In this document: in pieces, positions 10,890 through 36,526 of the stretch | How positions within the stretch are numbered: position 1 is the first letter of the stretch | How the letters are laid out: each line of letters opens with the position of its first letter | Source of the DNA: a virus | Lineage: Duplodnaviria > Heunggongvirae > Uroviricota > Caudoviricetes | DNA: 37,430 nucleotides | IMG/VR virus record: IMGVR_UViG_2585427768_000010 | Reading direction: 5' to 3' (one strand) | Translations under genes and position numbers: made by a program | The notes under the pieces: generated by a model | What the model was told of the DNA's origin: nothing | What the model saw: only the letters and a program-made list of their open reading frames with translations | The model's database searches: none

Positions 10890-10915
10890 ACAGCCCCATC
10901 ACGGGGCTGTTTTTT
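10890..10915. terminator. Bidirectional rho-independent terminator between the 174-aa gene and Q
   Basis: CAGCCCC-ATCA-CGGGGCTG hairpin flanked by A-run and T-run. Confidence 0.6.
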
Positions 10916-11945
10916 CATCAAGAAGAGCATAAGAGTTAAAACGGATCACCTCTTCGCCAAGCCAGTCATTGATGTGCTTCATAGCCTCCATGACGGGCAT
11001 CAGCTCGTTAATTGCGTAAACCCGCGCTGCCTTCTCCACATCGCCAAACGCACTTTTTTCGCCCGGCATCGCCCCCATCAGTTGCGGCGGAACGCGGTGC
11101 GCAGCCAGCACATCATCACGGGATGCCGCCTTAACATTCATGAATTCATCTTTTGCGGTGATCTGCTGGAACGGCAAAATTTGCACCCCCTCTTTGCCCC
11201 CGTTGGGCGCATGAATGAGCACGTTTTTAAACGCACCACCACCACGTGCCCCCTGTAGCGTTTCTTTCAGGGAGTCCATGCTTTCGCGGTTTACCTGCGC
11301 TGCACCGATGTAGATGATGCACCCGGCGTGGGATCCGTTGTCGTAGTACAGTTTTCTGAACATGTCCGCCGAATGAGAAAGGCTGGCCGAGAGTAATGCG
11401 CCAAGATATTCCGGCATGCCGTAGATTTCCTGGTTAATATCCGGATTCATCAGGTGGCACACTTTGCCAGGACGAAACTGAAACGCGTCCTTGCCATCCT
11501 GCACATACCACCATGATTCAAGATCGCTTCCGCGTCGCATGTATTTCGCCAGGGCGTGCCGTAATTTAAGCGGTTCGCCGAGCATATTGCTTCGAAGCTC
11601 AAGGAATGCGTTACCGAACACAAACCAGTCCAGCGCCAGCGCCGAGAAATCCTGCCGGGAAAGCAGCGGGTGCGGGATGTAGCAACCGAGTAATACATTG
11701 CGCTTAAAGTAAAGCGCAGACTGATGCCAGGACGTTTGCCGGGCAGCTCTTGCCAGACCGTACCAGTCCACCGGGGTTTCATACCACCGCCCGTTATCAG
11801 CACAGTACATATTGTCCAGCAGGTCATGCCCGGTCAGGCGATAAGGACCATCAAATGTGAATGCACTGAGCGATGATTCTTTCCTGAGCGCATCAGCGAG
11901 ATCAATGCGTGAACTCATGCGCACTTTTTTATTTTTTCTGCTCAT
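10899..11945 (-). CDS. Q: Portal protein (P2 gpQ-like, 348 aa)
   Basis: Size and position downstream of terminase P on minus strand; ATGA overlap with P stop. Confidence 0.85.
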   Translation of the reverse strand: MSRKNKKVRMSSRIDLADALRKESSLSAFTFDGPYRLTGHDLLDNMYCADNGRWYETPVDWYGLARAARQTSWHQSALYFKRNVLLGCYIPHPLLSRQDFSALALDWFVFGNAFLELRSNMLGEPLKLRHALAKYMRRGSDLESWWYVQDGKDAFQFRPGKVCHLMNPDINQEIYGMPEYLGALLSASLSHSADMFRKLYYDNGSHAGCIIYIGAAQVNRESMDSLKETLQGARGGGAFKNVLIHAPNGGKEGVQILPFQQITAKDEFMNVKAASRDDVLAAHRVPPQLMGAMPGEKSAFGDVEKAARVYAINELMPVMEAMKHINDWLGEEVIRFNSYALLDEKTAP

Positions 11946-13696
11946 CAGAACTCCATAACTGTGAAACGCTCGTTTTCTCCTTCGCCGCCAATTGGTTCGT
12001 TAATGACAGCAAGCATGGTTGCCCACGCAAGGTCGCCGTGGCTGATCCCCCTCGCGCGGTCCGTTTCGTAAGTGATAAAGCCGCCCGGTGTTTTCACCTT
12101 ACGCACGGCGTTAAAGGCTGCGACCAGCTCGCGTTCGGCGCGATCGTATTCCCACCGCCCGGCACGCATTATTTGCAGCATTTTCAGTACCAGCGACCGT
12201 TTTGATGACAGCGTGAAGGTGTACGGAATAGCAGCAGGGAAAAACCGTTTCACTATCTGATAAACAGCCTCCCCGTTCCCGCCCGTCACATCAATGCCGA
12301 TGTGTTCCACGTTGTAGCGACACGTGAACTCTTCAATGACTCTGGCCTGTTCTTCAAACTCCAGCCCCTGAACGCGTCGCGTCTCCACCGTTCGAAAACG
12401 GCCACCAGGAACAGACGGAGGAACCACCACGGACACAGCGCCGCTGTCGCCGTTGCCACTGCTGCCGTTTGCGTCATACCCAATCCATACCGGACGATTC
12501 CCCATCGGGCGGGGAGCAAAAGGTTTCCAGTCTTTCCAGTCGTCGTATCCGTCAACACCACAGCCAATCAGGATATTCAGGTTAAATGCCGATTCCCCTT
12601 CGCGGACAAACTCACACATATAGAGATTGAGGAACTCGTCTTCGGTGTTTTCATCACGAATTTCATCAATATCGGTGTGTTTCCAGCCGTGATTAACCAC
12701 ATCTTCCAGCGTGACAATTTGCCGCCACGTCCGGTCAGGGCAGATAAGCCCGTTATGCAGCGTTTTCCAGTCCACAGAAAAACGCTGGCGTTTATGCGTG
12801 GCCTTTTTCTCGTTCCAGCGGTCGCCGTTCCAGTAGGCGTATGCCTCGTGCGTTTCGGTGGATGGCGTGGAGAAGTAGGTGCGCCGCAGTCCGCTGAGGG
12901 TTGCCATAGCGCCAGCCACCTTGCGCAGTTCAGCAAAGCGACTGACCCAGAAAAATTCATCAAAATAAAAATTGCCCGTATAGGACTGCGCCGACGCAGC
13001 AGAAGTGCCGAGAAAATGCAGCTCTGCGCCGTTGGAGAGGATGATTTTATCGCCCCCTTTCAGCTCCACATCAACTTCAGCCGCGGCCTTCTGAATAATG
13101 CTTTTAAACTGGAACGCCTGACGACGCGACGCAGACAAAAAAATCTGGTTACGCTGGTAAGGTTGCGCCACATCGTCACGCAGCGCCATCAGCAGTGCTT
13201 CCTGTGCAAAATACCAGGTCGCGCCAATCTGTCGGGATTTCAGGATCATCCTGTTACGTATCCCGGCTTCCCTGCAAAGGGTCAGGGAGTCAAACCAGCC
13301 CCGCTGATGCCACTCCAGCCTGCTGATGATTTTTTCCCGCAGTGCGACAATCTGTTCCGGCGTGAAATGATTTTTGAGTTTTTTCGCCCGGCCTTTCTTT
13401 CCTGTGGCCGTCGCATCCGGCTGGCCATCATGCATTTTTTTAAGCTGCCGGGTCAGCAGGTCTATTTCCTTAAAGTCACCGCCTGTTTTATTCTGTTTTT
13501 CAGTAAGCTGGATGAGGCGCGCATCGATGGACTGCGTGACACGCTGCACGGGTGGCGTTTCATCCCACTGGTCGCGTTTTTTCCACGCATAAATCGTGTT
13601 CGGGTTTATTCCCATCAGACGTGATATTTCTGCGGGCGGATAACCCTGCCAGTAAAGTTGCCGCGCACGCTGGCGCACAAAAGCGTCCTGAATCAT
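11945..13696 (-). CDS. P: Terminase large (ATPase) subunit (P2 gpP-like, 583 aa)
   Basis: Size close to P2 gpP and divergent from the capsid operon as in P2. Confidence 0.85.
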   Translation of the reverse strand: MIQDAFVRQRARQLYWQGYPPAEISRLMGINPNTIYAWKKRDQWDETPPVQRVTQSIDARLIQLTEKQNKTGGDFKEIDLLTRQLKKMHDGQPDATATGKKGRAKKLKNHFTPEQIVALREKIISRLEWHQRGWFDSLTLCREAGIRNRMILKSRQIGATWYFAQEALLMALRDDVAQPYQRNQIFLSASRRQAFQFKSIIQKAAAEVDVELKGGDKIILSNGAELHFLGTSAASAQSYTGNFYFDEFFWVSRFAELRKVAGAMATLSGLRRTYFSTPSTETHEAYAYWNGDRWNEKKATHKRQRFSVDWKTLHNGLICPDRTWRQIVTLEDVVNHGWKHTDIDEIRDENTEDEFLNLYMCEFVREGESAFNLNILIGCGVDGYDDWKDWKPFAPRPMGNRPVWIGYDANGSSGNGDSGAVSVVVPPSVPGGRFRTVETRRVQGLEFEEQARVIEEFTCRYNVEHIGIDVTGGNGEAVYQIVKRFFPAAIPYTFTLSSKRSLVLKMLQIMRAGRWEYDRAERELVAAFNAVRKVKTPGGFITYETDRARGISHGDLAWATMLAVINEPIGGEGENERFTVMEF

Positions 13697-13744
13697 TGCT
13701 CCCCCTGAGTAATTACAGGAAGATTACCCGCGCGCGAAACCGTT

Positions 13745-13800
13745 CTCCTTACCCCCCTGTTCTGGCCGTTTTCTTACAACAAAAGCCCTTTGTATCAGCC
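13745..13800. promoter_or_regulatory. Candidate late-promoter activator element in the P/O divergent intergenic region
   Basis: CCCCTGTTCTGGCCGTTTTCTTACAACAAAAG followed by CCCTTTGTATC; the same two motifs recur in the FI/D intergenic region. Confidence 0.4.
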
Positions 13801-13850
13801 TGTTACGCTTTGCCATCATGACTGAAGAACCAGTCAGAGGGGCAAAAACT

Positions 13851-14687
13851 ATGGCTAATGAAAAAAAGACATCCCGCAAAAAGTTTCGCGTGGCTGTCTC
13901 CGGATCAACTGTTGATGGCCGCGAAATCAGCCCGGTACATCTGCGTGAAGCCGCCGAGAACTTCAACCCGGATGTTTACGCTGCCCGCGTGAACGTTGAG
14001 CACTATCTCTCGCCATGCCCGTCAAGCGAATTTTCCGCAATGGGCGATGTCACCGCGCTGAGTACGGAAGATATTACGGAAGGCCCGCTGGCCGGACGTA
14101 CTGCGCTGTATGCAGAAATCGAACCGACCGAGCGCATGAAGCAGCTTGTCGCTGACGGCAAGAAAATCTATTCCAGTATCGAACTGCACCCGCAGTTCTC
14201 CGTTAACGGGCGCGCCTATCTGGTCGGGCTGGCGATGACCGACACCCCGGCAAGCCTGGGCACTGAGCGCCTGAAATTCACGGCACAGCAACGTCAGGCG
14301 GTGATGACGTTCAACAGTATCCAGGGTGAAGCGCCGCTTATCTCCGAAGCCATTGAGTCTGAAATCATCGAAATGGCAGAACAACGCCAGGAAGAAGGCA
14401 CCCAGTGGTTTAACCGCGTAATGGGGATTATTGGCCGTGGCCGCAAAGCGGATGACGCCAGTTTTTCCCGTATTCAGGAAGCGGTGGAAGGCGTCGCAAC
14501 GTCACAGGCCGACATTATCGACCGTTTTAATGTGCTGGAAGCCCGCCATCAGCAGGACCGCCAGAAAATCACGTCACTGACCACAGAGCTGACAGCATTG
14601 AAGGAAAAACTGCGCACGCAGGACGGCGATCCGCAGAACCGCTTCACCGCAACGGGCGCAGCCTCCGACCAGCTGGCTGACTTCTGA
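13851..14687 (+). CDS. O: Capsid scaffolding protein (P2 gpO-like, 278 aa from ATG 13851)
   Basis: GAGGGG Shine-Dalgarno before ATG 13851; position before major capsid gene. Confidence 0.8.
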   Translation: MANEKKTSRKKFRVAVSGSTVDGREISPVHLREAAENFNPDVYAARVNVEHYLSPCPSSEFSAMGDVTALSTEDITEGPLAGRTALYAEIEPTERMKQLVADGKKIYSSIELHPQFSVNGRAYLVGLAMTDTPASLGTERLKFTAQQRQAVMTFNSIQGEAPLISEAIESEIIEMAEQRQEEGTQWFNRVMGIIGRGRKADDASFSRIQEAVEGVATSQADIIDRFNVLEARHQQDRQKITSLTTELTALKEKLRTQDGDPQNRFTATGAASDQLADF

Positions 14688-14710
14688 TAAGACAAAGGAG
14701 CAAATTTTTT

Positions 14711-15763
14711 ATGAATCTGGTGATGTCAGATATTACCCGCAACAAGCTGGGTTGCTATATGGCGAAGCAGGCGTCGCTTAACAATATCCCGGTATCTGCA
14801 CTGGTATCGCGATTTACCGTGGAACCCGCGGTGCAGCAGCGTTTTGAAAACGCCTCAAAGGAAAGTACCGAATTTACGAAAAGAATTAACGTGATCGGCG
14901 TGACCGACCAGAAAGGCGAAAAAATCCTCCTGGACACCACCGGGCCAATTGCGCGCACGAATAGCAGTTATGACGGCATCAAACGCCGTAACCCGAATAA
15001 CGTGATCGATATGAAGTCTCGTCAGTACCAGTGCGAACAGGTGAACTACGATACCTTTATTTCGTACCCACAGCTTGATACCTGGGCGGCCCACAGCGAT
15101 TTTCAGTCCCGTATCAGTACACAGATCGCCCGGCAGGTAGCGCTTGATCGCATCATGATTGGCTTTAACGGCACATCCCACGCCTACGAGTCTGATTTTC
15201 ACACCAACAAGCTGCTTCAGGACGTTAACGTGGGCTGGCTGGAGCACATCAGAACCGATGCCAGCGAGCGCGTAATGAATGACGTGACGCTGACCTCCCG
15301 CAACATGGACAACACTGTGGCGCACGCGGGTAAGTATGCGAATGCCGATGCTCTGGTACAGGATGCGCGCTCATCCCTGCTGGATGAATGGCACAAGGAA
15401 GCTGACGACCTCGTGGTGATTATGGGGCGCAACCTGTTTAACTCGCTGCGTCTGCCCGTGCTGAACAGCATCAGCGGCCAGAATCCCAATGCGGAATTAC
15501 TTGCCGGGCAGCTCATCCTGTCATCGCGCACCATTGGCGGGCTGGGCGTGTTCCTTGCGCCGTTCTTCCCGGATGCAACGATGCTTATCACCTCGTTCAA
15601 CAACCTGTCGATTTACTGGCAGAAAGGTTCAATGCGTCGCCTGATGAAAGACGAGCCGGAATACAACCGCATCGCCACCTACCAGTCCATCAATGACGCT
15701 TATGTCGTTGAAGACTATGGCAAGTGCGCGATGGTCACTGGCCTGAAGTTCGCCGACAGCTAA
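14711..15763 (+). CDS. N: Major capsid protein (P2 gpN-like, 350 aa)
   Basis: Shares P2 gpN blocks FTVEP, GEKI, FNG, LQDVNVGWL, LVVIMGR, FFPDATMLIT, LSIY, YVVEDY. Confidence 0.9.
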   Translation: MNLVMSDITRNKLGCYMAKQASLNNIPVSALVSRFTVEPAVQQRFENASKESTEFTKRINVIGVTDQKGEKILLDTTGPIARTNSSYDGIKRRNPNNVIDMKSRQYQCEQVNYDTFISYPQLDTWAAHSDFQSRISTQIARQVALDRIMIGFNGTSHAYESDFHTNKLLQDVNVGWLEHIRTDASERVMNDVTLTSRNMDNTVAHAGKYANADALVQDARSSLLDEWHKEADDLVVIMGRNLFNSLRLPVLNSISGQNPNAELLAGQLILSSRTIGGLGVFLAPFFPDATMLITSFNNLSIYWQKGSMRRLMKDEPEYNRIATYQSINDAYVVEDYGKCAMVTGLKFADS

Positions 15764-15808
15764 TCAACTCACGGCGGGCATCATGCCCGCCTGTAACGGA
15801 GAGAAAAA

Positions 15809-16609
15809 ATGATTACTCCTGCACAACAACACTGGCAGAACGTGATGGCACAGCGCGCAGGCCGGGCGAATGAAGGTGTGGACCACGCCGCGTGTACCGC
15901 GCATGAAGAGGTGCTGTATCGTCTGCGTCTGGCACAGGCCAGGCTAAAGGCCATACAGGCCAGAAGCGCGAAAGCCGCCATCAAAAAAGAGTTGTTGCCG
16001 GACTTTTCCGGCTGGATTGAGGGAACGCTGGAGGCTGACGGCGGGCAACAGGACGAAGTAATTGCCACGCTGATGGTGTGGGCGATTGACTGCGGCGATC
16101 TTCCGCTGGCGCTGCGTATTGGTGCATATGTGGTCCGTCACAACCTCATCATGCCGGATAACTTTGGCCGTACTGCTGCCACGGTACTGACCGAAGAAAT
16201 CTGCAACCCGGTACTGACGCAGGCCGGGACGGATGCCGACGCGGATTTATCCGCCTTTATCGAACCACTGGACACACTTTGGGAAATTGTCGCCAACCAG
16301 GACATTCCGGACGAAGTGCGCGCCAAATTATGCAAGGCGTGTGCCTTTGCCCGTCGTGGCCTGACCGATGCAGACAACATGGCCTCATCACTGAAGCTGC
16401 TGCGCGAAGCGATGCACCTGAACCCGAACGCAGGTGTGAAACGCGAGATTGCAACCCTTTCCCGCGCCCTGAAAAAAGCCGATTCCGCAGCCGAACCAGA
16501 AGACGCCAGCGCACAGCAGGCGCAGGACGAAAGCAGCAAAAGTAAAAAGACAACGCGGAAGCCTGCAACACGAAAAACCACCGCGACGCAGAAGGCAAAG
16601 CGCGGTTAA
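15809..16609 (+). CDS. M: Terminase small / endonuclease subunit (P2 gpM-like, 266 aa)
   Basis: Position and size; basic C-terminal tail. Confidence 0.8.
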   Translation: MITPAQQHWQNVMAQRAGRANEGVDHAACTAHEEVLYRLRLAQARLKAIQARSAKAAIKKELLPDFSGWIEGTLEADGGQQDEVIATLMVWAIDCGDLPLALRIGAYVVRHNLIMPDNFGRTAATVLTEEICNPVLTQAGTDADADLSAFIEPLDTLWEIVANQDIPDEVRAKLCKACAFARRGLTDADNMASSLKLLREAMHLNPNAGVKREIATLSRALKKADSAAEPEDASAQQAQDESSKSKKTTRKPATRKTTATQKAKRG

Positions 16610-16710
16610 CGACTGACCCCGTCAGCGGGCGGCGTGCGCGGTGTTCCGGTTTGACTCCGTGACCGTTTACACCGCGCACCCACCGCCCGATTTTTTCAGG
16701 AGTGAACCCC

Positions 16711-17205
16711 ATGAGTATGGTTGCCAGAACTAACCCCGGCCCCGCAGAGGACGACATCACCGATACCGATGATGGCGACACTCGCATTTCAGCGGGTGCA
16801 TTCTGGCCGGATATTGTGCTGCGTGAGCTGCGTCTGGCGGTACGACTGCCGGGCCGCGTGACCACCTCCCGCCTGCTGCATACCGCCACCGGGGCCATAG
16901 CACACGTTACCCGCGAGCTGGAAGCATGGCAGCAGGAACAACAGGCGGCTGGCTATCAGACGCTGGCCGATGTTCCGGCCCCTGTAATTAACGGAGAAAG
17001 CGTCAATCTCTGGCACTGGCGCAATGCTGTTTATACCGCCACACGCGCCCTGATTCTGGAGCGTTACCGCGATGCGGACACAACGGACAAGGGCGACCGC
17101 CGGGCGGACGCACTGGATATACAGACATCGGATTTGTGGCGCGATGTGAGCTGGGCCATCTCTGACATTCTGGGACGACCGCGAATGTTTGCGGAGCTGT
17201 GCTGA
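16711..17205 (+). CDS. L: Head completion/stabilisation protein (P2 gpL-like)
   Basis: AGGAG Shine-Dalgarno before ATG 16711; position after M. Confidence 0.8.
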   Translation: MSMVARTNPGPAEDDITDTDDGDTRISAGAFWPDIVLRELRLAVRLPGRVTTSRLLHTATGAIAHVTRELEAWQQEQQAAGYQTLADVPAPVINGESVNLWHWRNAVYTATRALILERYRDADTTDKGDRRADALDIQTSDLWRDVSWAISDILGRPRMFAELC

Positions 17206-17405
17206 TGAAAGTGAAGGCACTGGAAGGCGACACCGTGGATTCGCTCTGTTTCCGGTACTACGGCACGACACAGGGCGTCACCGAAAAGGTGCTGGATGCC
17301 AACCCCGGACTCTGTCAGCAGGTATTTCTGGACGCCGGGCAGGAAGTGGAGATGCCGGAGCCGGAGAAGAAGAAACGAGAAATGATTCAGTTGTGGGGGG
17401 AGTAG
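17205..17405 (+). CDS. X: Tail protein X (LysM-like, 66 aa)
   Basis: Similar to P2 gpX pattern (L.GDT.D..C.RYYG.T.GV.E.VL.ANPGL); ATG overlaps L stop. Confidence 0.75.
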   Translation: MKVKALEGDTVDSLCFRYYGTTQGVTEKVLDANPGLCQQVFLDAGQEVEMPEPEKKKREMIQLWGE

Positions 17406-17407
17406 CA

Positions 17408-17731
17408 GTGAGCACCATTCAAACAGGGATCACAGAGCAGGTTATTGCGTGGCTCTTTGACCACCTGCCAACGGTGTATGCAGTAGGCGCGGCTGTCAGC
17501 ATTTCCGCGCTGATGAGTCTTTATGACGGACGAACACTGGTTCAGACCGTAACGGGATCGCTGGCGTGCGGCGTTCTTGCCATGGCCGTGGCCGGGTCGC
17601 TGCGCTTCTTCGGGATCCCTGAGGATGCAGTGACGTTTTTTGGTGCCTCAATCGGTTTTATGGGCGCAGAGAAAGCACGCGACAAGGTTATTGCAATATT
17701 TGATCGCAGGGTGAAGGAGAGGAACGAATGA
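17408..17731 (+). CDS. Putative holin (107 aa, GTG start)
   Basis: Three hydrophobic segments; immediately upstream of endolysin. Confidence 0.55.
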   Translation: MSTIQTGITEQVIAWLFDHLPTVYAVGAAVSISALMSLYDGRTLVQTVTGSLACGVLAMAVAGSLRFFGIPEDAVTFFGASIGFMGAEKARDKVIAIFDRRVKERNE

Positions 17732-18120
17732 GCAACACATTTAAATTCAGCAGCCGAAGCGAAAAGAATTTGCAGGGTGTAAATCCTGATCTGGTGAAAG
17801 TGACCCGACGGGCGCTGGAAATCTCGGAAGTGGATTTTGGTATCACCGAAGGATTGCGCAGTCGTTATCGTCAGAAGCAGCTCGTGACCACAGGCAAGAG
17901 CCAGACCATGAACAGTCGCCATCTCACAGGGCATGCCGTGGATGTTGTGGCTTATGTTGGCAGCCAGGTGTCATGGGAATGGCCGCTGTACGAAAAAATC
18001 GCAGCAGCATTCAGACAGGCCAGCCAGGAACTGAATATTCCGGTGGAATGGGGCGGCGACTGGAAGACCCTGAAAGACGGACCGCATTTTCAGTTACCAC
18101 ACGGAGCCTATCCGGCATGA
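17728..18120 (+). CDS. Endolysin, peptidase M15-type (L-alanyl-D-glutamate peptidase-like, 130 aa)
   Basis: Zinc-peptidase M15 pattern (SRHLTGHAVDV, WGGDW, GPHFQL); position between holin and spanins. Confidence 0.75.
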   Translation: MSNTFKFSSRSEKNLQGVNPDLVKVTRRALEISEVDFGITEGLRSRYRQKQLVTTGKSQTMNSRHLTGHAVDVVAYVGSQVSWEWPLYEKIAAAFRQASQELNIPVEWGGDWKTLKDGPHFQLPHGAYPA

Positions 18121-18512
18121 AGCTCTGGCCCACGCTTGGCGTCGCTTTCCTTCTGATTACATCCATGCGTCTGTCGTGGTCGCTGGGCCGGGAGAACGCC
18201 AGAAACGAAGCGCAGGCCAGCACCCTGAAAAGTACCGTCGACACACTGAATATCATCAGCGCCGGGGTACAGGATATGCAGCAGGTGCTGGCTCAGCTCC
18301 GCGCGGAAAATCAGCAACGCAATCAGGACGGAGAGGTAAGACGTGAACAGCTACGCAACGATATTGCAAAAGATGAATGCGCCCACGCTTTGCCTGACGC
18401 TCGTTTTACTGACAGGTTGCGCAGGCACGCAGAACGCGCCAGGGCCAGCGCCGTCAGTCCGGCTTATACCGCAGACGCTGACCATGCCGGTAACGCCTCC
18501 CCCCTTCCCTGA
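18117..18512 (+). CDS. lysB: i-spanin (LysB/Rz-like, 131 aa)
   Basis: N-terminal transmembrane segment MKLWPTLGVAFLLITSM then coiled-coil-like charged region; start overlaps endolysin stop. Confidence 0.6.
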   Translation: MKLWPTLGVAFLLITSMRLSWSLGRENARNEAQASTLKSTVDTLNIISAGVQDMQQVLAQLRAENQQRNQDGEVRREQLRNDIAKDECAHALPDARFTDRLRRHAERARASAVSPAYTADADHAGNASPLP

Positions 18513-18654
18513 CCCACCCACATGGGGAAACCTCGGAATATGGGGCGACCGCCTTCTGGATGCACTGGAAACCTGTAACGCGGATAAACGGGCCATTGCT
18601 GAACTGGATAAGAGAATAGCCGAACTGACACACCAGACGGGAGTAACACAATGA
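18343..18654 (+). CDS. lysC: o-spanin lipoprotein (LysC/Rz1-like, 103 aa, GTG start) overlapping lysB out of frame
   Basis: Lipobox LLTGC after signal sequence; proline-rich; starts inside lysB in a different frame and extends beyond it. Confidence 0.55.
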   Translation: MNSYATILQKMNAPTLCLTLVLLTGCAGTQNAPGPAPSVRLIPQTLTMPVTPPPFPDPPTWGNLGIWGDRLLDALETCNADKRAIAELDKRIAELTHQTGVTQ

Positions 18655-20531
18655 CCAGTAAGAACTTTGCACTGATTACAGCCATGACACAGGCTGAACT
18701 GACTCAAAAGGTGAATGAACATCTTGCGAAAGGGTGGCATCTTCAGGGGGAGACGCGGGTTGCCTACGAACCCGGCACCCCGTGGTATCTAATGCAGGCA
18801 ATGGTGGACGATGGCACTACAGACATCTCACCTGATTCCCCCCAGCACGGCAGCGTGCCGGAGTGGTATTACGTGGTGGTACTTGCTGGTCAATCCAATG
18901 CCATGTCATATGGTGATGGAATGCCGCTGCCGGATTCTTACGATGCGCCCCACCCACGCATTAAGCAACTGGCCCGTCGCAACACAGTGACTCCCGGTGG
19001 TAAAGCATGCGCATTTAACGACATCATTCCGGCAGACCACTGCCTGCATGATGTTCAGGATATGAGCGCACTGAATCATCCGAAGGCAGACCTGAGCAAA
19101 GGGCAGTACGGCTGTGTCGGCCAGGGCTTACATATTGCCAAAAAACTGCTCCCGTATATCCCGAATAACGCGGGGATCCTGCTGGTACCATGCTGTCGTG
19201 GTGGTTCGGCATTCACTCAGGGCGCGGAGGGAACATTCAGTACGACCACGGGGACCAGCCAGGATTCGGCGCGCTGGGGTGTGGGTAAACCGTTATATCA
19301 GGACCTGATTGCGCGCACTAAAGCTGCATTACAGAAGAACCCGAAAAATGTGTTGCTGGCGGTGTGCTGGATGCAGGGCGAATTTGACATGAGCGCTGCC
19401 ACCTACGCACAGCAACCGGACCTGTTCACGGCCATGCTGAAGCAGTTCCGTACTGACCTTTCCGGATTTAACGCGCAGTGCCATGGCGGCAGTGCTGCAG
19501 TTGTACCGTGGATTTGTGGCGACACGACGTATTACTGGAAAAACACATACGGCACACAGTATGACTCCGTCTACGGCGCGTACAAAAACAGGGAGAGCGA
19601 CAACGTTTTCTTTGTGCCGTTCATGACCGACGGTAACGGCAACAACACGCCCACCAACTTACCGGCAGAAGACCCGGATATTGCTGATGCAGGTTATTAC
19701 GGCGCGCAATCCCGTAGTAATGGTAATTGGGTATCGTCAAATCGTCCGACACATTTCAGTTCATGGGCGCGCAGGGGCATTATTTCGGATCGCCTGGCAA
19801 CCGCTATTCTGAACGCAGTTGGTCGAACCAGCGCCTTCATCAGCGGTACCGCACCGGAGATTAAACCCTCGCCCGGCGGCGACACTCCATCGGGGCCGTC
19901 TGATGGTGACACATCCGTTCGTACAGTCTCCCTGCTGCCGACAGCCGGAGAGGCTGCTGCGCAGGGCTGGACCATCACCGGCGGCAGTGTTGCGCTGGAA
20001 GATGGTGTGTTTAAGGTTACCAAGCAGAGCAATAAAACCTGGTCCCTGATGCATCCGGTGGATGACGCAGTCTCCCTGCTGACACGGGGTGGCAGACTGA
20101 GCTGTAAGTTTCGACTGTCAGGCGCACTGACCAACAACCAGTTCGGTCTGGGAATTTATCTGTATACCGATGTAGCGTTACCTGACGTCGTGGCGATGAC
20201 CGGGACTGGTAACCCGTTCCTGATGTCGTTCTTCACCCAGACCACAGACGGCAAACTGAATCTGATGCATCACAAGAAAGCCGGAAACACAAAGTTGGGC
20301 GAGTTCGGGAATTACAGTAACGACTGGCAGACGCTGGAGCTGGTGTTCACCGCCGGCAGTGCCACGGTTACTCCGAAACTGAATGGAGTGGCTGGCCCGG
20401 CATTCCAGGTCATAAAAGACAGTCTGACACTGGGGCTGAATGCGCTGACGTTAACTGATATCACTAAAAATGCCGCGTACGGCGTCGATATCGGCAGCCT
20501 GGTGCTGGAAATCAATAATCCCGCAGCATAA
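18651..20531 (+). CDS. NanS-p-like SGNH esterase (putative sialate O-acetylesterase; DUF1737 N-domain plus esterase plus C-terminal domain, 626 aa)
   Basis: N-terminal DUF1737-like segment (AMTQAELTQKVNEHLAKGWHLQGE); SGNH block I VVLAGQSNAMSYG; ATGA overlap with lysC stop; no counterpart at this position in P2. Confidence 0.65.
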   Translation: MTSKNFALITAMTQAELTQKVNEHLAKGWHLQGETRVAYEPGTPWYLMQAMVDDGTTDISPDSPQHGSVPEWYYVVVLAGQSNAMSYGDGMPLPDSYDAPHPRIKQLARRNTVTPGGKACAFNDIIPADHCLHDVQDMSALNHPKADLSKGQYGCVGQGLHIAKKLLPYIPNNAGILLVPCCRGGSAFTQGAEGTFSTTTGTSQDSARWGVGKPLYQDLIARTKAALQKNPKNVLLAVCWMQGEFDMSAATYAQQPDLFTAMLKQFRTDLSGFNAQCHGGSAAVVPWICGDTTYYWKNTYGTQYDSVYGAYKNRESDNVFFVPFMTDGNGNNTPTNLPAEDPDIADAGYYGAQSRSNGNWVSSNRPTHFSSWARRGIISDRLATAILNAVGRTSAFISGTAPEIKPSPGGDTPSGPSDGDTSVRTVSLLPTAGEAAAQGWTITGGSVALEDGVFKVTKQSNKTWSLMHPVDDAVSLLTRGGRLSCKFRLSGALTNNQFGLGIYLYTDVALPDVVAMTGTGNPFLMSFFTQTTDGKLNLMHHKKAGNTKLGEFGNYSNDWQTLELVFTAGSATVTPKLNGVAGPAFQVIKDSLTLGLNALTLTDITKNAAYGVDIGSLVLEINNPAA

Positions 20532-20554
20532 GGAAGAGCAGGAGAGCAAAACAG

Positions 20555-21022
20555 ATGCTTAAGACAAACAGTCTGCGAGAGTCCATGCTTCATGGGTGTC
20601 GGTGGTGCCAGGCTAATCCCGAGAAATTCACCATTTTCGTGGAGAGCGGCAACATTGAAACGACCGGAGAAGCGCCCTCGTTTGTTTACCGCTATCAGAT
20701 GGTGATGTTTGTCATGGATTACGCCGGAGAGCTGGACGACCTCACGCTGCCGCTGCTGGCGTGGTTATCCGAAAATCAGCCACAGTTGTTGCTCAATCCG
20801 GAGCGTAATCAGGACATCAAATTTTCTGCCGTTATCAATGACGATGACAGCGCCGATCTCCTGTTTACGCTCCCCCTGCGGGAACGCGTTCGCATCACGC
20901 GCAACAGTCAGGGCACACCGCAGGCAGAACACCTGCCGGAGCCAAAACCCCGTCTGCCCTCTTCCGAAGGCGACTGGTCGCATGTATTCCAGGATGTGAC
21001 GTGGGGTGAAAGCGATGGATAA
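20555..21022 (+). CDS. R: Tail completion protein R (155 aa)
   Basis: Size identical to P2 gpR and position before S. Confidence 0.8.
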   Translation: MLKTNSLRESMLHGCRWCQANPEKFTIFVESGNIETTGEAPSFVYRYQMVMFVMDYAGELDDLTLPLLAWLSENQPQLLLNPERNQDIKFSAVINDDDSADLLFTLPLRERVRITRNSQGTPQAEHLPEPKPRLPSSEGDWSHVFQDVTWGESDG

Positions 21023-21650
21023 GGCATTCACCAGCGTGGATGAAACCTTTGAGGCTATCCGCGACAGCCTGAATCAGCAGGCCATCAATAACATCGCCAG
21101 AAAGCTGGCACAGGATTTACGTCGCGCCCAGCAGGCACGTATCCGATCACAAAAAGCGCCGGACGGGACCGAATGGACACCACGCAGACGCCGCGTAACC
21201 CGGATACAGGAGCGCATTCGCTTTATCTGGAATAACGAAGCACGCACGCTGAAAAACTGGCATCACGACACGGGGAAATACGGGCGAACCATTACCGGGT
21301 GGGATGAGGATAAAAACAATATCCGCACGTTTTACCGGGATGACATCGACCGTTTTCTGGAAATACGCACCCGGCGCATCAACCAGGACAGCACAAAGCG
21401 CGTCCCCATGTTCGTAAAACTGCGCACCGCCCGCTACCTGAAAGCCCGTGCAGATGCCTCCGGTGTGACGGTGGGTTACAGCGGCGTGGCCGCACGTATT
21501 GCACGCGTTCATCAGTTCGGTGAGCGCGATCAGGTTGCGCCGGGCATTTTCACCGATTACCCGGTACGTGAGCTGTTGGGTATCAGCCAGGCAGATGAGC
21601 GCCTGATTTATAACACGGTGCTGGGCCGGATTGCGGAGGCTGTACGGTGA
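21015..21650 (+). CDS. S: Tail completion protein S
   Basis: Position; start uncertain (GTG 21006 or ATG 21015). Confidence 0.75.
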   Translation: MDKAFTSVDETFEAIRDSLNQQAINNIARKLAQDLRRAQQARIRSQKAPDGTEWTPRRRRVTRIQERIRFIWNNEARTLKNWHHDTGKYGRTITGWDEDKNNIRTFYRDDIDRFLEIRTRRINQDSTKRVPMFVKLRTARYLKARADASGVTVGYSGVAARIARVHQFGERDQVAPGIFTDYPVRELLGISQADERLIYNTVLGRIAEAVR

Positions 21651-22228
21651 GCGCAGAACTCATGCGACTGCTGAGCAACATCATCCGCACCGGGATCATC
21701 TCTGAAGTTGATGAGAAGTCCTGGCGCGTGCGCGTTCGCAGCGGCGAACTGGAAACAGGCTGGTTGCGCTGGAACACCACGCGCGCGGGAGCCTTCAATG
21801 TGTGGCTGCCGCCATCACCAGGCGAACAGGTGGTAATTGCCTGCATTGGCGGCAACCCGGAAACCGCCATGATAATTGGCAGCCTGTGGAGTGATGCCAG
21901 TCCGGCCCCCGGCAAAAGCCTGAAAGAAATCGTGGTCAGCGCGCCGGATGGCGCGGTGTTCCGCTACGACGCAGACGCTGGCGCACTGAGCGCCAGCGGC
22001 ATGAAAACAGCCACCCTGCAGGCATCCGTCAGCGTGACACTGGATACGCCCGTCGTGGAATGCACAAACCTTCTGAGAACAGCGACGCTTGACGTCACAA
22101 AAGGGGGAAAGATGTGCGGCAATATCACGCACAGCGGCGGCAACTTCACCTCAAACGGCATCACAGTGCATACGCATAAACACGGTGGTGTGAAAGGCGG
22201 CAGCGATTCGACAGGAGGCCCGCAGTGA
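21647..22228 (+). CDS. V: Baseplate spike protein V (193 aa)
   Basis: Position; C-terminal HTHKHGG apex motif typical of gpV spikes; start GTG 21647 or ATG 21662. Confidence 0.8.
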   Translation: MSAELMRLLSNIIRTGIISEVDEKSWRVRVRSGELETGWLRWNTTRAGAFNVWLPPSPGEQVVIACIGGNPETAMIIGSLWSDASPAPGKSLKEIVVSAPDGAVFRYDADAGALSASGMKTATLQASVSVTLDTPVVECTNLLRTATLDVTKGGKMCGNITHSGGNFTSNGITVHTHKHGGVKGGSDSTGGPQ

Positions 22229-22575
22229 CAACCCGCTACACAGGAATGAATCCGGACGGGACGGGAAACCTGAATGATATGGAGCACCTGAAACAGTCAG
22301 CCAGGGACATCCTGACCACCCCGCTGGCCAGCCGGGTTATGCGACGGGAATATGGCAGCCTTGTACCTGATTTGATTGACGAACCCATGAATAACACCAC
22401 GCGTCTGCAATGCATGAGTGCTGCCGTGATTGCGCTGACACGATGGGAACCCCGCATTGCCCTGGACGCCATCGACGTTGTCTGGAAAGCGGGAGGCCGC
22501 GCCGGGGTGACGCTGTCGGGCACTGTCATGCAGACCATGCAGAATGTTGAGTTAACCATCACGCTGAGGGAGTAA
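22225..22575 (+). CDS. W: Baseplate protein W (116 aa)
   Basis: Size and position. Confidence 0.8.
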   Translation: MTTRYTGMNPDGTGNLNDMEHLKQSARDILTTPLASRVMRREYGSLVPDLIDEPMNNTTRLQCMSAAVIALTRWEPRIALDAIDVVWKAGGRAGVTLSGTVMQTMQNVELTITLRE

Positions 22576-22578
22576 ATC

Positions 22579-23475
22579 ATGCCTGCTGTTGACCTTTCCC
22601 AGTTACCGGAACCCGCCATCATCGCGAAGCCTGATTTTGAGGCAATTCTGGCTGACACAAAGGCCATGATGATTGCGTCCTATCCTGCCGAACAGCGTGA
22701 AGCCGTCTCCGCCGCGCTGGAGCTGGAATCGGAACCCCTGAACGTTATCGCCCAGACAACAGCGTTTCGTGAAATGCTGTTACGCCAGCGGGTCAATGAG
22801 GGTGCACGCGCCTGCATGTTAAGCCACAGCGCCGGGACAGACCTGGACAACCTCGCGGGCAATATGAACACAAAGCGCCTGGTTATCACTCCGGCAACGG
22901 ATACCACCGACGCGGTGATGGAAAGCGACACATCGCTGAGACTGCGGGCGCAACGGGCGTATGACGGTCTGAGTGTTGCTGGCCCGTCAGGCGCATACGA
23001 GTATTTTGCACGCAGCGCCAGCGGTCTGGTACGCGACGCGCGAGCCATCAGCCCGTCTCCGGCCAACGTGACGGTTTCCATCCTGTCCACTGAAGGCGAC
23101 GGCACAGCAACGGAGGCGTTGCTTAATACCGTTCGCGCCGTTCTGAATGCAGAGGATACCCGCCCGGTGGCCGACCGCCTGACCGTACAGAGCGCCAGAA
23201 TCGTGACATGGCGGCTGAATGCAAAACTGTACTTTTACCCCGGCCCGGAATCCGAACCTATTCTGGCCGCGGCTGAATCGTCGTTCAGGAAGTGGCTGGC
23301 TGAGCAGGGGCTTATCGGTCAGGACGTGGCGTTGTCCGCCATTGCTGCCGCACTGCATGTGCACGGTGTGCAACGCGTGGAGATAATCGAACCCACACAG
23401 AATATGGCCATCAGCGACATACAGGCGGCGCGCTGTGAGTCATTCACCATCAGCGAAGGTGGACGCAATGAGTAA
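22579..23475 (+). CDS. J: Baseplate protein J (298 aa)
   Basis: Size and position. Confidence 0.8.
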   Translation: MPAVDLSQLPEPAIIAKPDFEAILADTKAMMIASYPAEQREAVSAALELESEPLNVIAQTTAFREMLLRQRVNEGARACMLSHSAGTDLDNLAGNMNTKRLVITPATDTTDAVMESDTSLRLRAQRAYDGLSVAGPSGAYEYFARSASGLVRDARAISPSPANVTVSILSTEGDGTATEALLNTVRAVLNAEDTRPVADRLTVQSARIVTWRLNAKLYFYPGPESEPILAAAESSFRKWLAEQGLIGQDVALSAIAAALHVHGVQRVEIIEPTQNMAISDIQAARCESFTISEGGRNE

Positions 23476-24076
23476 TTCGTTGTTACCACCATCAGCCAGC
23501 AATTTCATGCGTTGTGCCGAAGCCGTCGGAACACGCATTACAGACATTCCGGTAGACCTCAACACGCTGTGGTCGCCGGACACCTGCCCGGTGCATCTGC
23601 TGCCTTATCTCGCCTGGGCGTTTTCCGTTGACCGCTGGGATCGCAACTGGCCGGAAGAGACAAAGCGACAGGTGATTCGTGATGCATGGCTGATACACCG
23701 ACACAAAGGGACCATCAGCGCACTGCGAAGAGCCGTGGAGCCTCTCGGCTACCTGATTGAAGTAAAGGAGTGGTGGCAACTCAACGAGGAGCCGGGAACA
23801 TTTCGCATTGTTGTCGGAGTACTTGATCAGGGCATCACCGATGAAATGTATCAGGAACTTGAGCGCCTTATTGCGGATGCAAAACCAGTAAGTCGCCATC
23901 TGACGGGGCTGGCGATCAGCCTGAGTGTGAACGGAAAGATTTTCGTTGGTACGGGATGCTATCACGGCGATGCCCTGACGGTTTATCCCTACACCCCGGA
24001 GTCCATTATTGTCGAAGGGGATTATTTCCCTGCCCCGGCCATTCATTTAATTGATAATCTGAGAGTAAACGCATGA
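23468..24076 (+). CDS. I: Baseplate/tail protein I (202 aa from ATG 23468)
   Basis: Position; ATG overlaps J stop. Confidence 0.8.
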   Translation: MSNSLLPPSASNFMRCAEAVGTRITDIPVDLNTLWSPDTCPVHLLPYLAWAFSVDRWDRNWPEETKRQVIRDAWLIHRHKGTISALRRAVEPLGYLIEVKEWWQLNEEPGTFRIVVGVLDQGITDEMYQELERLIADAKPVSRHLTGLAISLSVNGKIFVGTGCYHGDALTVYPYTPESIIVEGDYFPAPAIHLIDNLRVNA

Positions 24077-25668
24077 CAGTGAAATACTACGCCATTCTGA
24101 CTAATCAGGGCGCGGCACGACTGGCTAACGCGACGATGCTCGGCAGTAAGCTGAATCTGACGCGAATGGCCGTTGGTGATGCAAATGGTGTGTTACCAAC
24201 ACCAGACCCTGCACAAACAAAACTGATTAACCAGAAACGCATTGCACCGCTGAATCTTCTGAGTGTTGACCCTAACAATCAGAGCCAGATTATTGCGGAG
24301 CAAATCATCCCTGAAAGCGAGGGTGGATTCTGGATCCGTGAGATTGGTCTTTATGATGATAAAGGTGTACTCATTGCGGTGGCAAACTGCCCGGAAACGT
24401 ACAAACCGCAGTTGCAGGAAGGCAGTGGACGCACCCAGACTATCCGCATGATTCTGGTTGTCACGAACACCGAAGCCATCACGCTGAAAATCGACCCGTC
24501 TGTGGTTCTGGCAACCCGCAAATATGTGGATGATAAAATCTCAAAGCACGAGCAGTCACGACGTCACCCGGACGCCTCGCTGACCGCAAAAGGCTTTGTT
24601 CAACTTAGCAGTGCCACGGACAGTCAATCAGAAACTGAGGCTGCCACGCCGAAGGCTGTGAAAATCGCGTATGATCTGGCCTGGGGAAAATACACAGCCC
24701 AGGATGCAACAACGACCCGTAAAGGGATCGTACAACTGAGCAGTGCCACCAACAGCACCTCTGAAACGCTGGCCGCCACACCAAAAGCCGTCAAGGCGGC
24801 ATACGACCTTGCAGCCGGCAAGGCCCCCGTCAGCCACACTCACCCATGGAGTCAGATAACGGGAGTGCCTGCTGCCTCGCTGACGGCAAAAGGCACCGTA
24901 CAACTGAGCAGTGCCATCAACAGCACGTCTGAAATACTGGCCGCCACACCGAAAGCGGTCAAGGATGCATACGATCTGGCAAACGGAAAACAACCGGCAG
25001 ATGCCACGCTCACTGCTCTGGCAGGACTTGCCACTGCAGCAGATCGGTTGCCTTATTTTACCGGAGCAGACCGCGCAGCGCTGGCAACCCTTACAGCTAT
25101 TGGTCGCGCTATTATCGCTAAGGGCAGTATAAAAGATGTCCTCAATTACCTTGGTTTGGGGGAAGGCTCTGCATTGCCTGTTGGTGTACCGGTTCCGTGG
25201 CCCACCGCCACACCGCCAGAAGGCTGGTTAAAGTGCGACGGGCGCGCCTTTACAAAAGAACAATATCCTGTTCTGGCCAGAGCCTACCCGACCCTCCGTC
25301 TTCCCGATTTACGCGGTGAGTTTATCCGTGGATGGGACGACGGGCGCAAAGTTGATACAGGACGTAAGTTGCTGTCCGCACAAGGGGCAACGCTGTTAAG
25401 AACAGCAATGCTGGATTATTATAACCAGGACACTACGGGAACCTCGGGGATAGTCGGCATGGGATTCAACAATGAAGATTCCATTACAGACCTTCGTGAG
25501 GGCAGCTTTAAAATGCCGGACGGGACAACATTCAGCGATCCTGTCGTGGCAATGTCAGACAATGGTATGCAGGCTACTATTCTGACCTCTATCAGAAGCG
25601 GGTATGCGAAGGGTATCACTGTCAGACCCCGTAGCATTGCACTTAATTACATTGTGAGGGCAGTTTAA
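24073..25668 (+). CDS. H: Tail fibre protein H (531 aa) with constant N-terminal 360 aa and variable C-terminal receptor-binding region
   Basis: Strong match to P2 gpH (AVGD, GGFW.RE.GLYDD.G.LIAVAN, SKHEQSRRHPDASLTAKGFVQLSSAT, DATLTALAGLATAADR, PYFTG); three internal LTAKG..QLSSA repeats. Confidence 0.9.
   Translation: MTVKYYAILTNQGAARLANATMLGSKLNLTRMAVGDANGVLPTPDPAQTKLINQKRIAPLNLLSVDPNNQSQIIAEQIIPESEGGFWIREIGLYDDKGVLIAVANCPETYKPQLQEGSGRTQTIRMILVVTNTEAITLKIDPSVVLATRKYVDDKISKHEQSRRHPDASLTAKGFVQLSSATDSQSETEAATPKAVKIAYDLAWGKYTAQDATTTRKGIVQLSSATNSTSETLAATPKAVKAAYDLAAGKAPVSHTHPWSQITGVPAASLTAKGTVQLSSAINSTSEILAATPKAVKDAYDLANGKQPADATLTALAGLATAADRLPYFTGADRAALATLTAIGRAIIAKGSIKDVLNYLGLGEGSALPVGVPVPWPTATPPEGWLKCDGRAFTKEQYPVLARAYPTLRLPDLRGEFIRGWDDGRKVDTGRKLLSAQGATLLRTAMLDYYNQDTTGTSGIVGMGFNNEDSITDLREGSFKMPDGTTFSDPVVAMSDNGMQATILTSIRSGYAKGITVRPRSIALNYIVRAV
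25139..25164. other. Invertase crossover site A (hix/gix-like, 26 bp), inside H
   Basis: Reverse complement reads TTCCCCCAAACC-AA-GGTAATTGAGGA; compare hixL TTCTTGAAAACC-AA-GGTTTTTGATAA. Confidence 0.5.
25151..25330 (+). repeat. Tail-fibre recombination repeat, copy A (direct orientation)
   Basis: About 170 bp nearly identical to inverted copies ending at 26767 and 27239. Confidence 0.8.
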
Positions 25669-26282
25669 TGAGTAACACTGCAGTTCTGGATGAAAACGGT
25701 ATCGCCACTGTAGCGGGCGATATCACTGTATATCACTATGACGAGGAAACCCGGGAATACACCTCATCCTCTGTGGAGTATCTCGCCCTTGGGGTGGGTA
25801 CTCCGGCACATTCGTGCGCCGATGCACCGCCGGAGGCAATTTCGGGTTACGTGGTTTGCCGGACTGCCACGCTGAACGGGTGGGAGCATGTGCCTGATCA
25901 CCGCGGCGAGACGGTATACAGCACGGAGAACGGTAACCCTGTTCTGATTACCCAACCGGGTGATTACCCGGCGGACACCACCACAAAACAGCCAGCCACG
26001 CCATGGGATACCTGGAACGGTGAGGCGTGGGTAACCGATACTGAACGGCAGCGAGCCGCAGAACTGGAGGTTGCCAGACAGCAACGCCAGCAACGGGTGA
26101 AACAGGCGATGGCGTCCGTCGATCTTATCAACCTCAAACTGCGTGCTGGTCGCAGTCTGACACCAGAAGAAACGGCAAAACTGAACGCCGTGCTGGATTA
26201 TATCGACGAGCTGAACGCACTGGATATCAGCACGGCACCTGAAATCAGCTGGCCGGAAGCGCCACTGGCACTTGCCAGTTGA
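25668..26282 (+). CDS. G: Tail fibre assembly chaperone G (204 aa)
   Basis: Position after H with 1-nt overlap; typical tail-fibre-assembly C-terminus. Confidence 0.8.
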   Translation: MSNTAVLDENGIATVAGDITVYHYDEETREYTSSSVEYLALGVGTPAHSCADAPPEAISGYVVCRTATLNGWEHVPDHRGETVYSTENGNPVLITQPGDYPADTTTKQPATPWDTWNGEAWVTDTERQRAAELEVARQQRQQRVKQAMASVDLINLKLRAGRSLTPEETAKLNAVLDYIDELNALDISTAPEISWPEAPLALAS

Positions 26283-27931: not shown

Positions 27932-28426
27932 TCAAAACAGCCCTTTAACGGAGCTGGCCGCGCTGTTAAGAGATGATGTCACTTTATCTTTGAAGCCGGA
28001 CAGCATATCGCTGAACGATGAGGATTGCAGGCGCTCCCGCAAATCCTCATCACAGCGTTCAAGAGTCAGTGAAAATTCTATCTTTTTCGCCTTACCATAG
28101 CGATCAAACTCGGAACGGGTCGTATTCGTTTCAGTCAGTACATACATGCCGTAAATCTGCCCGACACCATCAATCAGAGGCCAGGGGCGTCCTGTATATG
28201 CCTGCGTGGTCAGCAACGAAAGCGACACTTCGCCACCTGTAATTTCAGGATAAAGCACGCCGGAAAGCACAATGCGATCATCACCTGCGCCGATATACTG
28301 CCAGCCTGCTGAACGGTTAACGCGTTCATTTTTCACATGCCGCCAGCTTTTGTTTTGCTGTAACTGCTGATGCGGCAGCGTGCGCAGCTCAAAAACAAAC
28401 ATGCCGTAGATCATCATCATGGCCAT
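27932..28426 (-). CDS. U: Tail protein U (164 aa)
   Basis: Position immediately downstream of tape measure; size like P2 gpU. Confidence 0.8.
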   Translation of the reverse strand: MAMMMIYGMFVFELRTLPHQQLQQNKSWRHVKNERVNRSAGWQYIGAGDDRIVLSGVLYPEITGGEVSLSLLTTQAYTGRPWPLIDGVGQIYGMYVLTETNTTRSEFDRYGKAKKIEFSLTLERCDEDLRERLQSSSFSDMLSGFKDKVTSSLNSAASSVKGLF

Positions 28427-28432
28427 GACTCC

Positions 28433-31249: not shown

Positions 31250-31495
31250 TCCCGCTGCGAAGTGCCGCCCGCTCGCGCCAGCTAACCACTTCGCCGGGCG
31301 TCATCATGAAGATTTCGGCGGGCGACCAGTTAAAAATGGCGGCAATATCCGCCACCAGATCTTCGATGTGCTCAAAGCACACCAGGGTGATTACGCTGCC
31401 GTCTCCTGCACGCTCTTCGCGCCAGAGTCTGGCTCGCTCATAAAATTTACAGCCACAGCGCACAACCGAATAAAATCGCGTGACGACATTTTTTT
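31227..31495 (-). CDS. E' extension in the -1 frame (tape-measure chaperone frameshift product E+E')
   Basis: -1 frame opens at the A7 run (minus-strand 31489-31495) inside E and ends overlapping the T start, as for P2 E/E'. Confidence 0.55.
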
Positions 31496-31765
31496 AATCA
31501 TCACTTCATCCAGTCGTGGCGAGGTCACGCGAGGCAACAGCGTGAACATGGTATCCGCTTTCAGATTCAGCACATCAGACAGCGACAGACCACGCAGGGA
31601 TCCCGCCTGCTCAATAGCCCCGGTGATCTCCACATATGTGATTTTTTCGCCACCACGCTCAATTGGCCGGGAAAGTTTTACACCACGTTCGACAGCCATA
31701 TCCTCACCTGCCGTCACATCATCCGCTACGGTGTTATTCCGGGTTTCAGTATCGATATCTTTCAT
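31391..31765 (-). CDS. E: Tail assembly chaperone E (124 aa in zero frame)
   Basis: AAGGAGA Shine-Dalgarno; position between FII and T; contains slippery A7. Confidence 0.75.
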   Translation of the reverse strand: MKDIDTETRNNTVADDVTAGEDMAVERGVKLSRPIERGGEKITYVEITGAIEQAGSLRGLSLSDVLNLKADTMFTLLPRVTSPRLDEVMIKKMSSRDFIRLCAVAVNFMSEPDSGAKSVQETAA

Positions 31766-31820
31766 CAGTTGTCTCCTTTTCAGTCAGAGGCGACGCACTG
31801 CGCCGCCTGCATATTACTTA

Positions 31821-33517: not shown

Positions 33518-33525
33518 AGCTTTAG

Positions 33526-33620: not shown

Positions 33621-33674
33621 AGCAGTAACCCCCTCCGCACGCACATGCGACCATGCCGCACAGGGAGGGAACAG

Positions 33675-36514: not shown

Positions 36515-36526
36515 TCGGGAAGAAAG

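Follow-up and report, generated by a model that had tools for sequence, protein, structure and literature searches.

The activator Ogr binds inverted repeats centred at about -55, and contact with the alpha subunit of the RNA polymerase is required (PMC3152322). The consensus of the Ogr site is TGT-N12-ACA (PMC3931495). In phage P2 three such sites are found, of which PO and PF read TGT-N12-CCA; in the P2 record, PP and PO share a single annotated activator site. The annotated P2 starts lie 47-49 nt past the dyad edge, with centre-to-start distances of 55.5-57.5, and -10-like hexamers are found 35-41 nt from the edge. The P2 genes FI-FII-E-T-U-D-ogr all run in one direction, with D as the last gene of the F operon, and an ogr promoter is annotated between D and ogr.

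P88-like prophages are very common, in approximately a quarter of complete E. coli genomes, and no description of their late control was found in the searched literature. At 90% identity or more, the region between FI and D (33400-33800 in our coordinates) occurs in 1370 of 5426 complete E. coli genomes, with at most 3 copies per genome. In the same literature, no transcript starts, binding or Ogr-dependence results were found for P88-like phages and no late-promoter work on P88-, 3LV2017- or SEN4/5-like phages. Here, we analyzed one such element computationally, in the following called the window, i.e. the whole stretch of 37,430 nt from IMG/VR record IMGVR_UViG_2585427768_000010. A preceding sequence-only reading had pointed to shared elements in two of its divergent intergenic regions, P/O and FI/D, as plausible Ogr-responsive late promoter sites.

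The prophage and its late genes

The window is a P88-like (Xuanwuvirus) P2-family E. coli prophage. Both intergenic regions and their flanks show 97-99% identity to Escherichia phage P88 and its kin (Xuanwuvirus, Peduoviridae). The gene order was taken from the list of open reading frames, the P88 annotation and Pfam, which gave the following late genes and units:

10899-13696, minus strand: Q and P
13851-26282, plus strand: O to G
27932-33517, minus strand: U, T, E, FII and FI, the leftward FI-FII-E-T-U unit, in the order annotated in P88
32333-33517, minus strand: FI (tail sheath), first gene of the leftward unit, with Pfam Phage_sheath domains
33675-34784, plus strand: D (tail/baseplate hub), which opens the predicted PD unit (Pfam Phage_GPD, 65 bits)
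34827-35087, plus strand: ogr-like activator gene, 86 aa, with CPLC...CNNLEC (Pfam Ogr_Delta)

Both gene pairs, P/O and FI/D, are divergent, with intergenic gaps of 154 nt and 157 nt, respectively, and all four flanking genes are late genes, namely P (terminase), O (scaffold), FI (sheath) and D. The product of the ogr-like gene matches Pfam Ogr_Delta with 52.4 bits (cut-off 26.3) and carries the CX2C...CX4C motif; its gene lies downstream of D after a gap of 42 nt. It had been suggested from the sequence that D and ogr are transcribed from their own late promoter rather than as the tail of the F operon. The layout supports this suggestion: FI-FII-E-T-U is encoded on the strand opposite D, hence D cannot belong to the F operon as its tail and must be transcribed from a promoter of its own.

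Several further features of the gene map deserve mention. A tail-fibre segment follows G, and P88 has a DNA invertase gene in that segment. Within the late O-to-G unit, with the lysis genes on one side and R on the other, an open reading frame of 626 aa (18651-20531, plus strand) carries DUF1737, a SASA (sialate O-acetylesterase-like) domain and DUF6645. P88 has no gene at this site (P88 gap 18978-19116, P88 coordinates), and the open reading frame looks like a cargo gene that is expressed along with the late genes. Past ogr, three tRNA genes stand in a row (36431-36730, minus strand; Rfam, 54-69 bits), presumably representing host flank close to the prophage end.

Two dyads between divergent late genes

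The element that both intergenic regions share in register is GTTCT-N12-ACAACAAAA (13759-13784 and 33595-33620), with the core GTTCT-N12-ACAAC(AAAA) at 13759-13780 and 33595-33616. It contains one imperfect dyad per region:

13761-13778, no strand: P/O dyad TCT-ggccgttttctt-ACA, read from the sequence and the top PWM match
33597-33614, no strand: FI/D dyad TCT-cccgatccggcg-ACA, read from the sequence and the second PWM match

With flanks, the P/O dyad reads tGTTCT-ggccgttttctt-ACAACAAAAG (13759-13785) and the FI/D dyad cGTTCT-cccgatccggcg-ACAACAAAAAG (33595-33622). The former is centred at 13769.5, with the P ATG (13696) at a distance of 73.5 nt and the O ATG (13851) at 81.5 nt; the latter is centred at 33605.5, with the FI ATG (33517) 88.5 nt and the D ATG (33675) 69.5 nt away. 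Both sites have a perfect right half ACA(AC), and the left triplet is TCT instead of the consensus TGT, a single G-to-C change of the central base. The earlier statement that neither region fits the textbook spacing is thus wrong, because the spacing is exactly 12 and the difference lies in the left triplet; this corrects the impression of an unusual activator-site spacing. Its companion suggestion of a variant activator site was justified, as the left half-site is one base off the textbook form.

A PWM scan of the window found one dyad per intergenic region, and only these two sites stand out, with 41.5 bits (P/O) and 33.1 bits (FI/D); the next best score is at most 11.3 bits, and the shuffle maxima reach 13.6-17.4. 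It must be mentioned that the matrix was built from 81 distinct sites with window-like sequences among them, hence both top scores are inflated. A third, PV-type site was found in the window neither by pattern nor by PWM. A direct four-way alignment, with each region in both orientations, was uninformative, and Rfam gave no known RNA in either of them. An RNA hairpin formed by the dyad is not credible, with arms of 3-5 bp and a spacer of 12 nt.

As a separate observation, the exact 9-mer CCGTTCTCC occurs in both regions, at 13740-13748 and 33593-33601. In FI/D it includes the left half-site; in P/O it represents an extra GTTCT that precedes the real dyad by 21 nt on its left side and lacks an ACA at N12. 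The 9-mer is specific to the P88-like lineage.

Conservation among relatives

The relatives of the window were collected in two ways. Genome contigs were scanned with an alignment of FI, which resulted in 80 loci, one genome per species. Where FI shares at least 55% identity with that of the window (54 loci), D invariably lies divergently upstream of it, which is the case at none of the loci with P2 layout (FI identity 51% or less). In 49 of the 54 divergent-layout loci, from approximately 50 species, T(G/C)T-N12-ACA is found 69-82 nt from the FI ATG, 21 times as TCT and 28 times as TGT. The exceptions are one Erwinia locus with CCT-N12-ACA and four Providencia loci, which have GGTTCT-N12-AGAACC at this place. 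Furthermore, 68 distinct P/O regions were obtained by scanning viral contigs with the N-terminus of P, and 67 of them carry T(G/C)T-N12-ACA 62-81 nt from the P ATG. The textbook form GGTTGT-N12-ACAAC is present in both regions of 3LV2017 and SEN5 and in FI/D of KSP20, and Kp4848-1, whose FI is 70% identical to that of the window, has TCT in both its regions.

Among distinct sequences, the half-sites hold 1.83-1.84 bits of information vs 0.61-0.80 in the spacer (for P/O, 1.83 and 0.80, respectively). Among 46 distinct close relatives, FI/D shows no change in TTCT or GACAACAAAAAGCAG but varies at 8 of the 12 spacer positions. Constant half-sites around a hypervariable spacer are the signature of a bipartite protein-binding site. 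For variability within the lineage, the FI scan of viral contigs gave only relatives of 98-100% identity, which are too close for deep footprinting.

Sequences, conservation and geometry of the dyads are direct observations, and so is the presence of an activator gene in the same prophage. Judged from these, the dyads are very probably the activator sites for the prophage's own Ogr-type protein.

Predicted promoters on both sides of the dyads

Hexamers of the form NAnnAT, which resemble a -10 element, are found on all four sides of the two dyads, 35-41 nt past the edge, and this register is conserved in relatives. The core elements are predicted as follows:

13721-13726, minus strand: PP -10-like TAATCT, 35-40 nt from the dyad edge, in the register of P2 PP (TAGCCT)
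13729-13736, no strand: CGCGCGCG block in the PP spacer, adjoining the -10-like hexamer upstream
13790-13795, plus strand: weak PO -35-like TTGTAT
13814-13819, plus strand: PO -10-like CATCAT, 36-41 nt from the dyad edge, with P2 PO geometry
33557-33562, minus strand: PF -10-like GATGAT, 35-40 nt from the dyad edge, with P2 PF geometry
33571-33576, no strand: CGCGCG block of the PF spacer, which, like those of the other three promoters, lies 21-26 nt past the dyad edge
33636-33644, no strand: CGCACGCAC block in the PD spacer, CGCGCGCGC in relatives
33649-33654, plus strand: PD -10-like GACCAT, 35-40 nt from the dyad edge

The hexamers match only 3 of 6 consensus positions, hence their assignment rests on register and conservation. 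For PP, Kp4848-1, 3LV2017 and SEN5 keep TAATCT or TAGCCT. The -35 position of PO reads TTGTAT in the window and TTGAGA in relatives, and in both cases 18 nt separate it from CATCAT; TGCcATcAT is conserved across 54 distinct P/O regions. In 48 distinct FI/D regions the PF register keeps the pattern A..AT and the PD register the consensus aA..aT; GATGAT is invariant in close relatives, as is GACCAT in 46 of them. The CGCGCGCG block is among the best-conserved parts of the left flank of P/O (54 distinct sequences). No sigma-70 consensus promoter was found in the P/O or the FI/D intergenic region, which is expected of activator-dependent promoters. The starts are predicted at about 13712-13714 (PP, minus strand), 13825-13827 (PO, plus strand), 33548-33550 (PF, minus strand) and 33660-33663 (PD, plus strand). 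The predicted PD leader comprises only 12-15 nt with the Shine-Dalgarno sequence GGGAGGG, and this shortness counts against the model.

Some further sequence features of these regions should be noted. The CG-rich block between -35 and -10 of all four predicted promoters is found clade-wide (e.g. in relatives L086-L140 and L167-L246), where it ranks with the best-conserved stretches of the flanks. A rightward PP-like core CGCGCGTAATCT (33571-33583) was rejected, since it lacks conservation beyond the lineage, and within the lineage its T is variable. The ribosome-binding sites of O (AGGGGCAAAAACTATG, 13838-13853, plus strand) and FI (AGGGGCTAAAGCTATG, 33515-33530, minus strand) are identical at 14 of 16 positions in inverted orientation, a likeness absent from the shared elements listed by the sequence-only reading.

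Taken together, each dyad is likely to be one binding site for an activator of the Ogr/Delta family that would serve two back-to-back late promoters. The deviation of the left half-site from the consensus at its central base counts against an Ogr site. Alternatively, the dyads could be real sites of another factor, e.g. a host protein or another phage regulator, or could act one way only, on PO and PF as in P2, with P and D expressed from other signals. The hybrid asymmetry, with TCT on the P/FI side and ACAACAAAA on the O/D side, could indeed mean directionality, and promoter-like matches exist elsewhere, for example inside D. However, the half-sites, the spacing and the gene distance match the family consensus, a cognate Ogr_Delta gene is encoded, and the P2 annotation also has a single site for PP and PO. 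The NAnnAT hexamers are conserved at equal register on both sides, and neither P nor D has another detectable promoter upstream. Hence, we regard another factor or one-way action as unlikely and prefer Ogr-type sites that act in both directions.

The shared strings of the two regions

The core of the earlier proposal, Ogr-responsive late promoter sites in both regions, is supported by the comparative evidence, whereas the components chosen for it are out of register. All quoted strings do occur at the places given for them: CCCCTGT(N0-6)GCCGTT is found only at 13754 and 33585 in the window (0 expected), ACAACAAAAG/A is located at 13776 and 33612, and CCCYTTGTATC at 13786 and 33526. But they do not build one collinear motif, because their distances to ACAAC differ. 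GCCGTT is separated from ACAAC by 5 nt in P/O and by 14 nt in FI/D, and it falls within the spacer in the former and overlaps the left half-site in the latter. CCCCTGT is shifted by 5 nt between the regions, and its TGT is not constant even in relatives of 98% identity. Only the ACAACAAAAG block is real, consisting of the right half-site and a conserved A-rich flank; CCCCTGT, GCCGTT and CCCYTTGTATC occur at non-equivalent positions and do not belong to a common site.

CCCYTTGTATC belongs to a 13-mer, AGCCC(T/C)TTGTATC, shared with one mismatch. In P/O it follows the dyad in the -35 region of PO, and the TTGTAT listed above lies within the CCCTTTGTATC quoted there. The copy in FI/D has another context:

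33524-33536, no strand: AGCCCCTTGTATC, the second FI/D element of the sequence-only reading, in the predicted FI leader, 60 nt beyond the dyad

The reverse complement of AGCCCCTTGTATC carries the FI Shine-Dalgarno sequence (GATACAAGGGGCTAAAGCTATG), and AGCCCCTTGTATC is not conserved in relatives below approximately 98% identity. We therefore treat the sharing of CCC(T/C)TTGTATC as a coincidence or, at most, as lineage-specific.

Taken literally, the earlier proposal describes a site CCCCTGT...GCCGTT...ACAACAAAAG with variable, non-canonical spacing plus a CCC(T/C)TTGTATC element. It can be said in its favour that the strings occur in these two regions only, and that the 13-mer is nominally unusual, as just 5 of 300 shuffles reach its length. 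However, the blocks stand at unequal distances from the invariant ACAAC, GCCGTT is spacer in one region and half-site flank in the other, and CCCYTTGTATC lies downstream of the dyad in P/O and 60 nt upstream of it, in the FI leader, in FI/D. The 98%-identical relatives L086 and L087 have CCCCTGC, and CTGTGCCG is the most variable flank among close relatives. Finally, the blocks are lost in distant relatives and T(G/C)T-N12-ACA is kept, which makes such a composite site very improbable.

The exact pattern GTTCT-N12-ACAAC has three matches in the window vs approximately 0.07 expected (74,860 positions / 4^10, own arithmetic). The third one (29155-29176, minus strand) lies inside gene T, and P88 has the same match. 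It has a low full-PWM score and is absent in Kp4848-1, 3LV2017 and SEN5, and was set aside as a late-promoter site, being probably due to chance. Short motifs are easily found post hoc, this third match exists, and several further 9-12-mers are common to both regions, but a chance likeness or a duplication remnant of two GC-rich intergenic regions with no regulatory role is hardly conceivable, given that the position is conserved in over 100 distinct sequences of many genera whose spacers vary, and that the PWM scores lie far above the shuffle maxima.

The predicted D-ogr unit and the proposed mechanism

For the dyads as Ogr-type sites, the following mechanism is proposed. The Ogr homologue would bind the imperfect dyad TCT-N12-ACA in each divergent region, with the dyad centre approximately 55-56 bp from the start on either side, as at P2 PP/PO. 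The bound activator would recruit the RNA polymerase through the alpha C-terminal domain, in analogy with P2. The promoters activated in this way are expected to be weak, with a -35 that matches the consensus poorly, a CG-rich spacer and a -10 element of the form NAnnAT. Thereby two dyads could drive four late units, namely PP (P, Q), PO (O through G), PF (FI-FII-E-T-U) and PD (D, then ogr). V to G would probably belong to the long O unit, since no PV-type site is present. Binding, Ogr dependence, start sites and polymerase contact are what we infer in this scheme.

Since ogr follows 42 nt behind D and no terminator is predicted between the two genes, ogr would be part of the PD unit, and positive feedback of late transcription on its own activator would result. 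An Ogr homologue follows D in most divergent-layout loci. The first Ogr molecules probably come from a separate weak promoter in the D-ogr gap:

34791-34796, plus strand: candidate -10 TAGAAT of an Ogr-independent ogr promoter, with CATAAT or TATAAT at this place in relatives

This candidate was missed by the promoter scan, and its -35 is weak.

Two observations on this part of the clade are added. In the D-ogr gap of many relatives (e.g. L088, L090, L105, L110 and L083), CATAAT is followed by a perfect palindrome, GGGAGTT-C-AACTCCC, which closely precedes the ogr Shine-Dalgarno sequence GGGAGG. The palindrome may function as an operator or as an anti-SD/anti-anti-SD RNA element; the gap of the window (34785-34826) has TAGAAT instead of CATAAT and lacks the palindrome. 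Moreover, the Ogr proteins of the clade share a C-terminal motif, FIPxDAFPxSHYGxxQLxL, which is not found in P2 Ogr and is divergent in the window (IPWHELPASHRGNNQMSL).

Half-site classes and the activator

Three site classes exist in one clade: TGT/ACA, the hybrid TCT/ACA of the window and the symmetric TCT/AGA of the Providencia type. Of the Ogr alignment columns, the one two residues past the fourth Cys best separates the TCT from the TGT lineages; it is V, R or E with TCT sites and I, L, C or Y with TGT sites, with one exception. In L112, an independent TCT lineage, both this residue and the CGA-X residue are changed. The Providencia Ogr reads CGAVTYTKTS, i.e. TYTKTS vs A(K/R)TRTS in all others, and the window has ARIRTS. 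Whether G or C stands at the centre of the half-site may be an evolving determinant of specificity that co-varies with Ogr, but at present we consider this rather doubtful. The data are compatible with a co-evolving specificity, but they comprise very few independent events, and the hybrid site keeps one canonical half. No solved structure of any Ogr homologue exists on which the co-varying residues could be mapped.

A TCT-type and a TGT-type prophage reside in one genome in K. michiganensis, Kosakonia oryziphila and Salmonella s1. If the specificity assumption is true, the site classes could partly insulate co-resident P2-like prophages and satellites from cross-activation of their late genes. 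Furthermore, the three half-site classes represent a natural series for how zinc fingers of the Ogr family read DNA. For the P88-like prophages themselves, a testable map is gained, with two dyads, four predicted promoters, predicted starts and a proposed D-ogr feedback unit that is absent from P2.

Comparison with known systems

The dyads as such are an expected feature for a P2-family phage. As at P2 PP/PO and PF, they have a 12-bp spacer, one perfect half and another half that is off by one base. In the P2 PO and PF sites the imperfect half is CCA, whereas here it is TCT/AGA, changed at the central base. Moreover, one site is modelled for PP and PO, as annotated in P2. The predicted promoters resemble the P2 late promoters in their weak -35 and the GCGC in the spacer, with a PP -10 of TAGCCT in P2 vs TAATCT here. 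Sites upstream of P/Q, of O and the following genes and of FI and the following genes, and a C4 zinc-finger activator of the Ogr_Delta type encoded after D, are likewise common to both.

The differences to P2 mainly concern the layout. The genes FI to U are inverted relative to D, and by this inversion the PF dyad also faces D, which creates a predicted PD promoter absent from P2. There are two sites here instead of the three in P2, with no PV-type site detectable. The D-ogr gap is shorter than in P2 (81 nt), and the annotated P2 ogr promoter lies at the same position as the candidate TAGAAT.

The same divergent layout, with regions of approximately 155-160 nt, is found in 3LV2017 (Klebsiella, Reginaelenavirus), SEN5 (Salmonella, Senquatrovirus) and KSP20 (Serratia). 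These phages also share one central dyad in each region, the CGCGCG blocks, the -10-like hexamers and ogr after D. Their sites, however, are of the textbook type, whereas the TCT left half is found in the lineage of the window and in prophages of 20 other species. The Providencia-type prophages (L119-L121, L138, L247-L257 and L266) agree in layout, in the place of the dyad and in its 12-bp spacer, but carry the C variant in both halves and are thereby fully symmetric. Hence, the system represents the usual P2-type late-gene switch, altered by one base in the site and extended by a predicted promoter that results from the layout.
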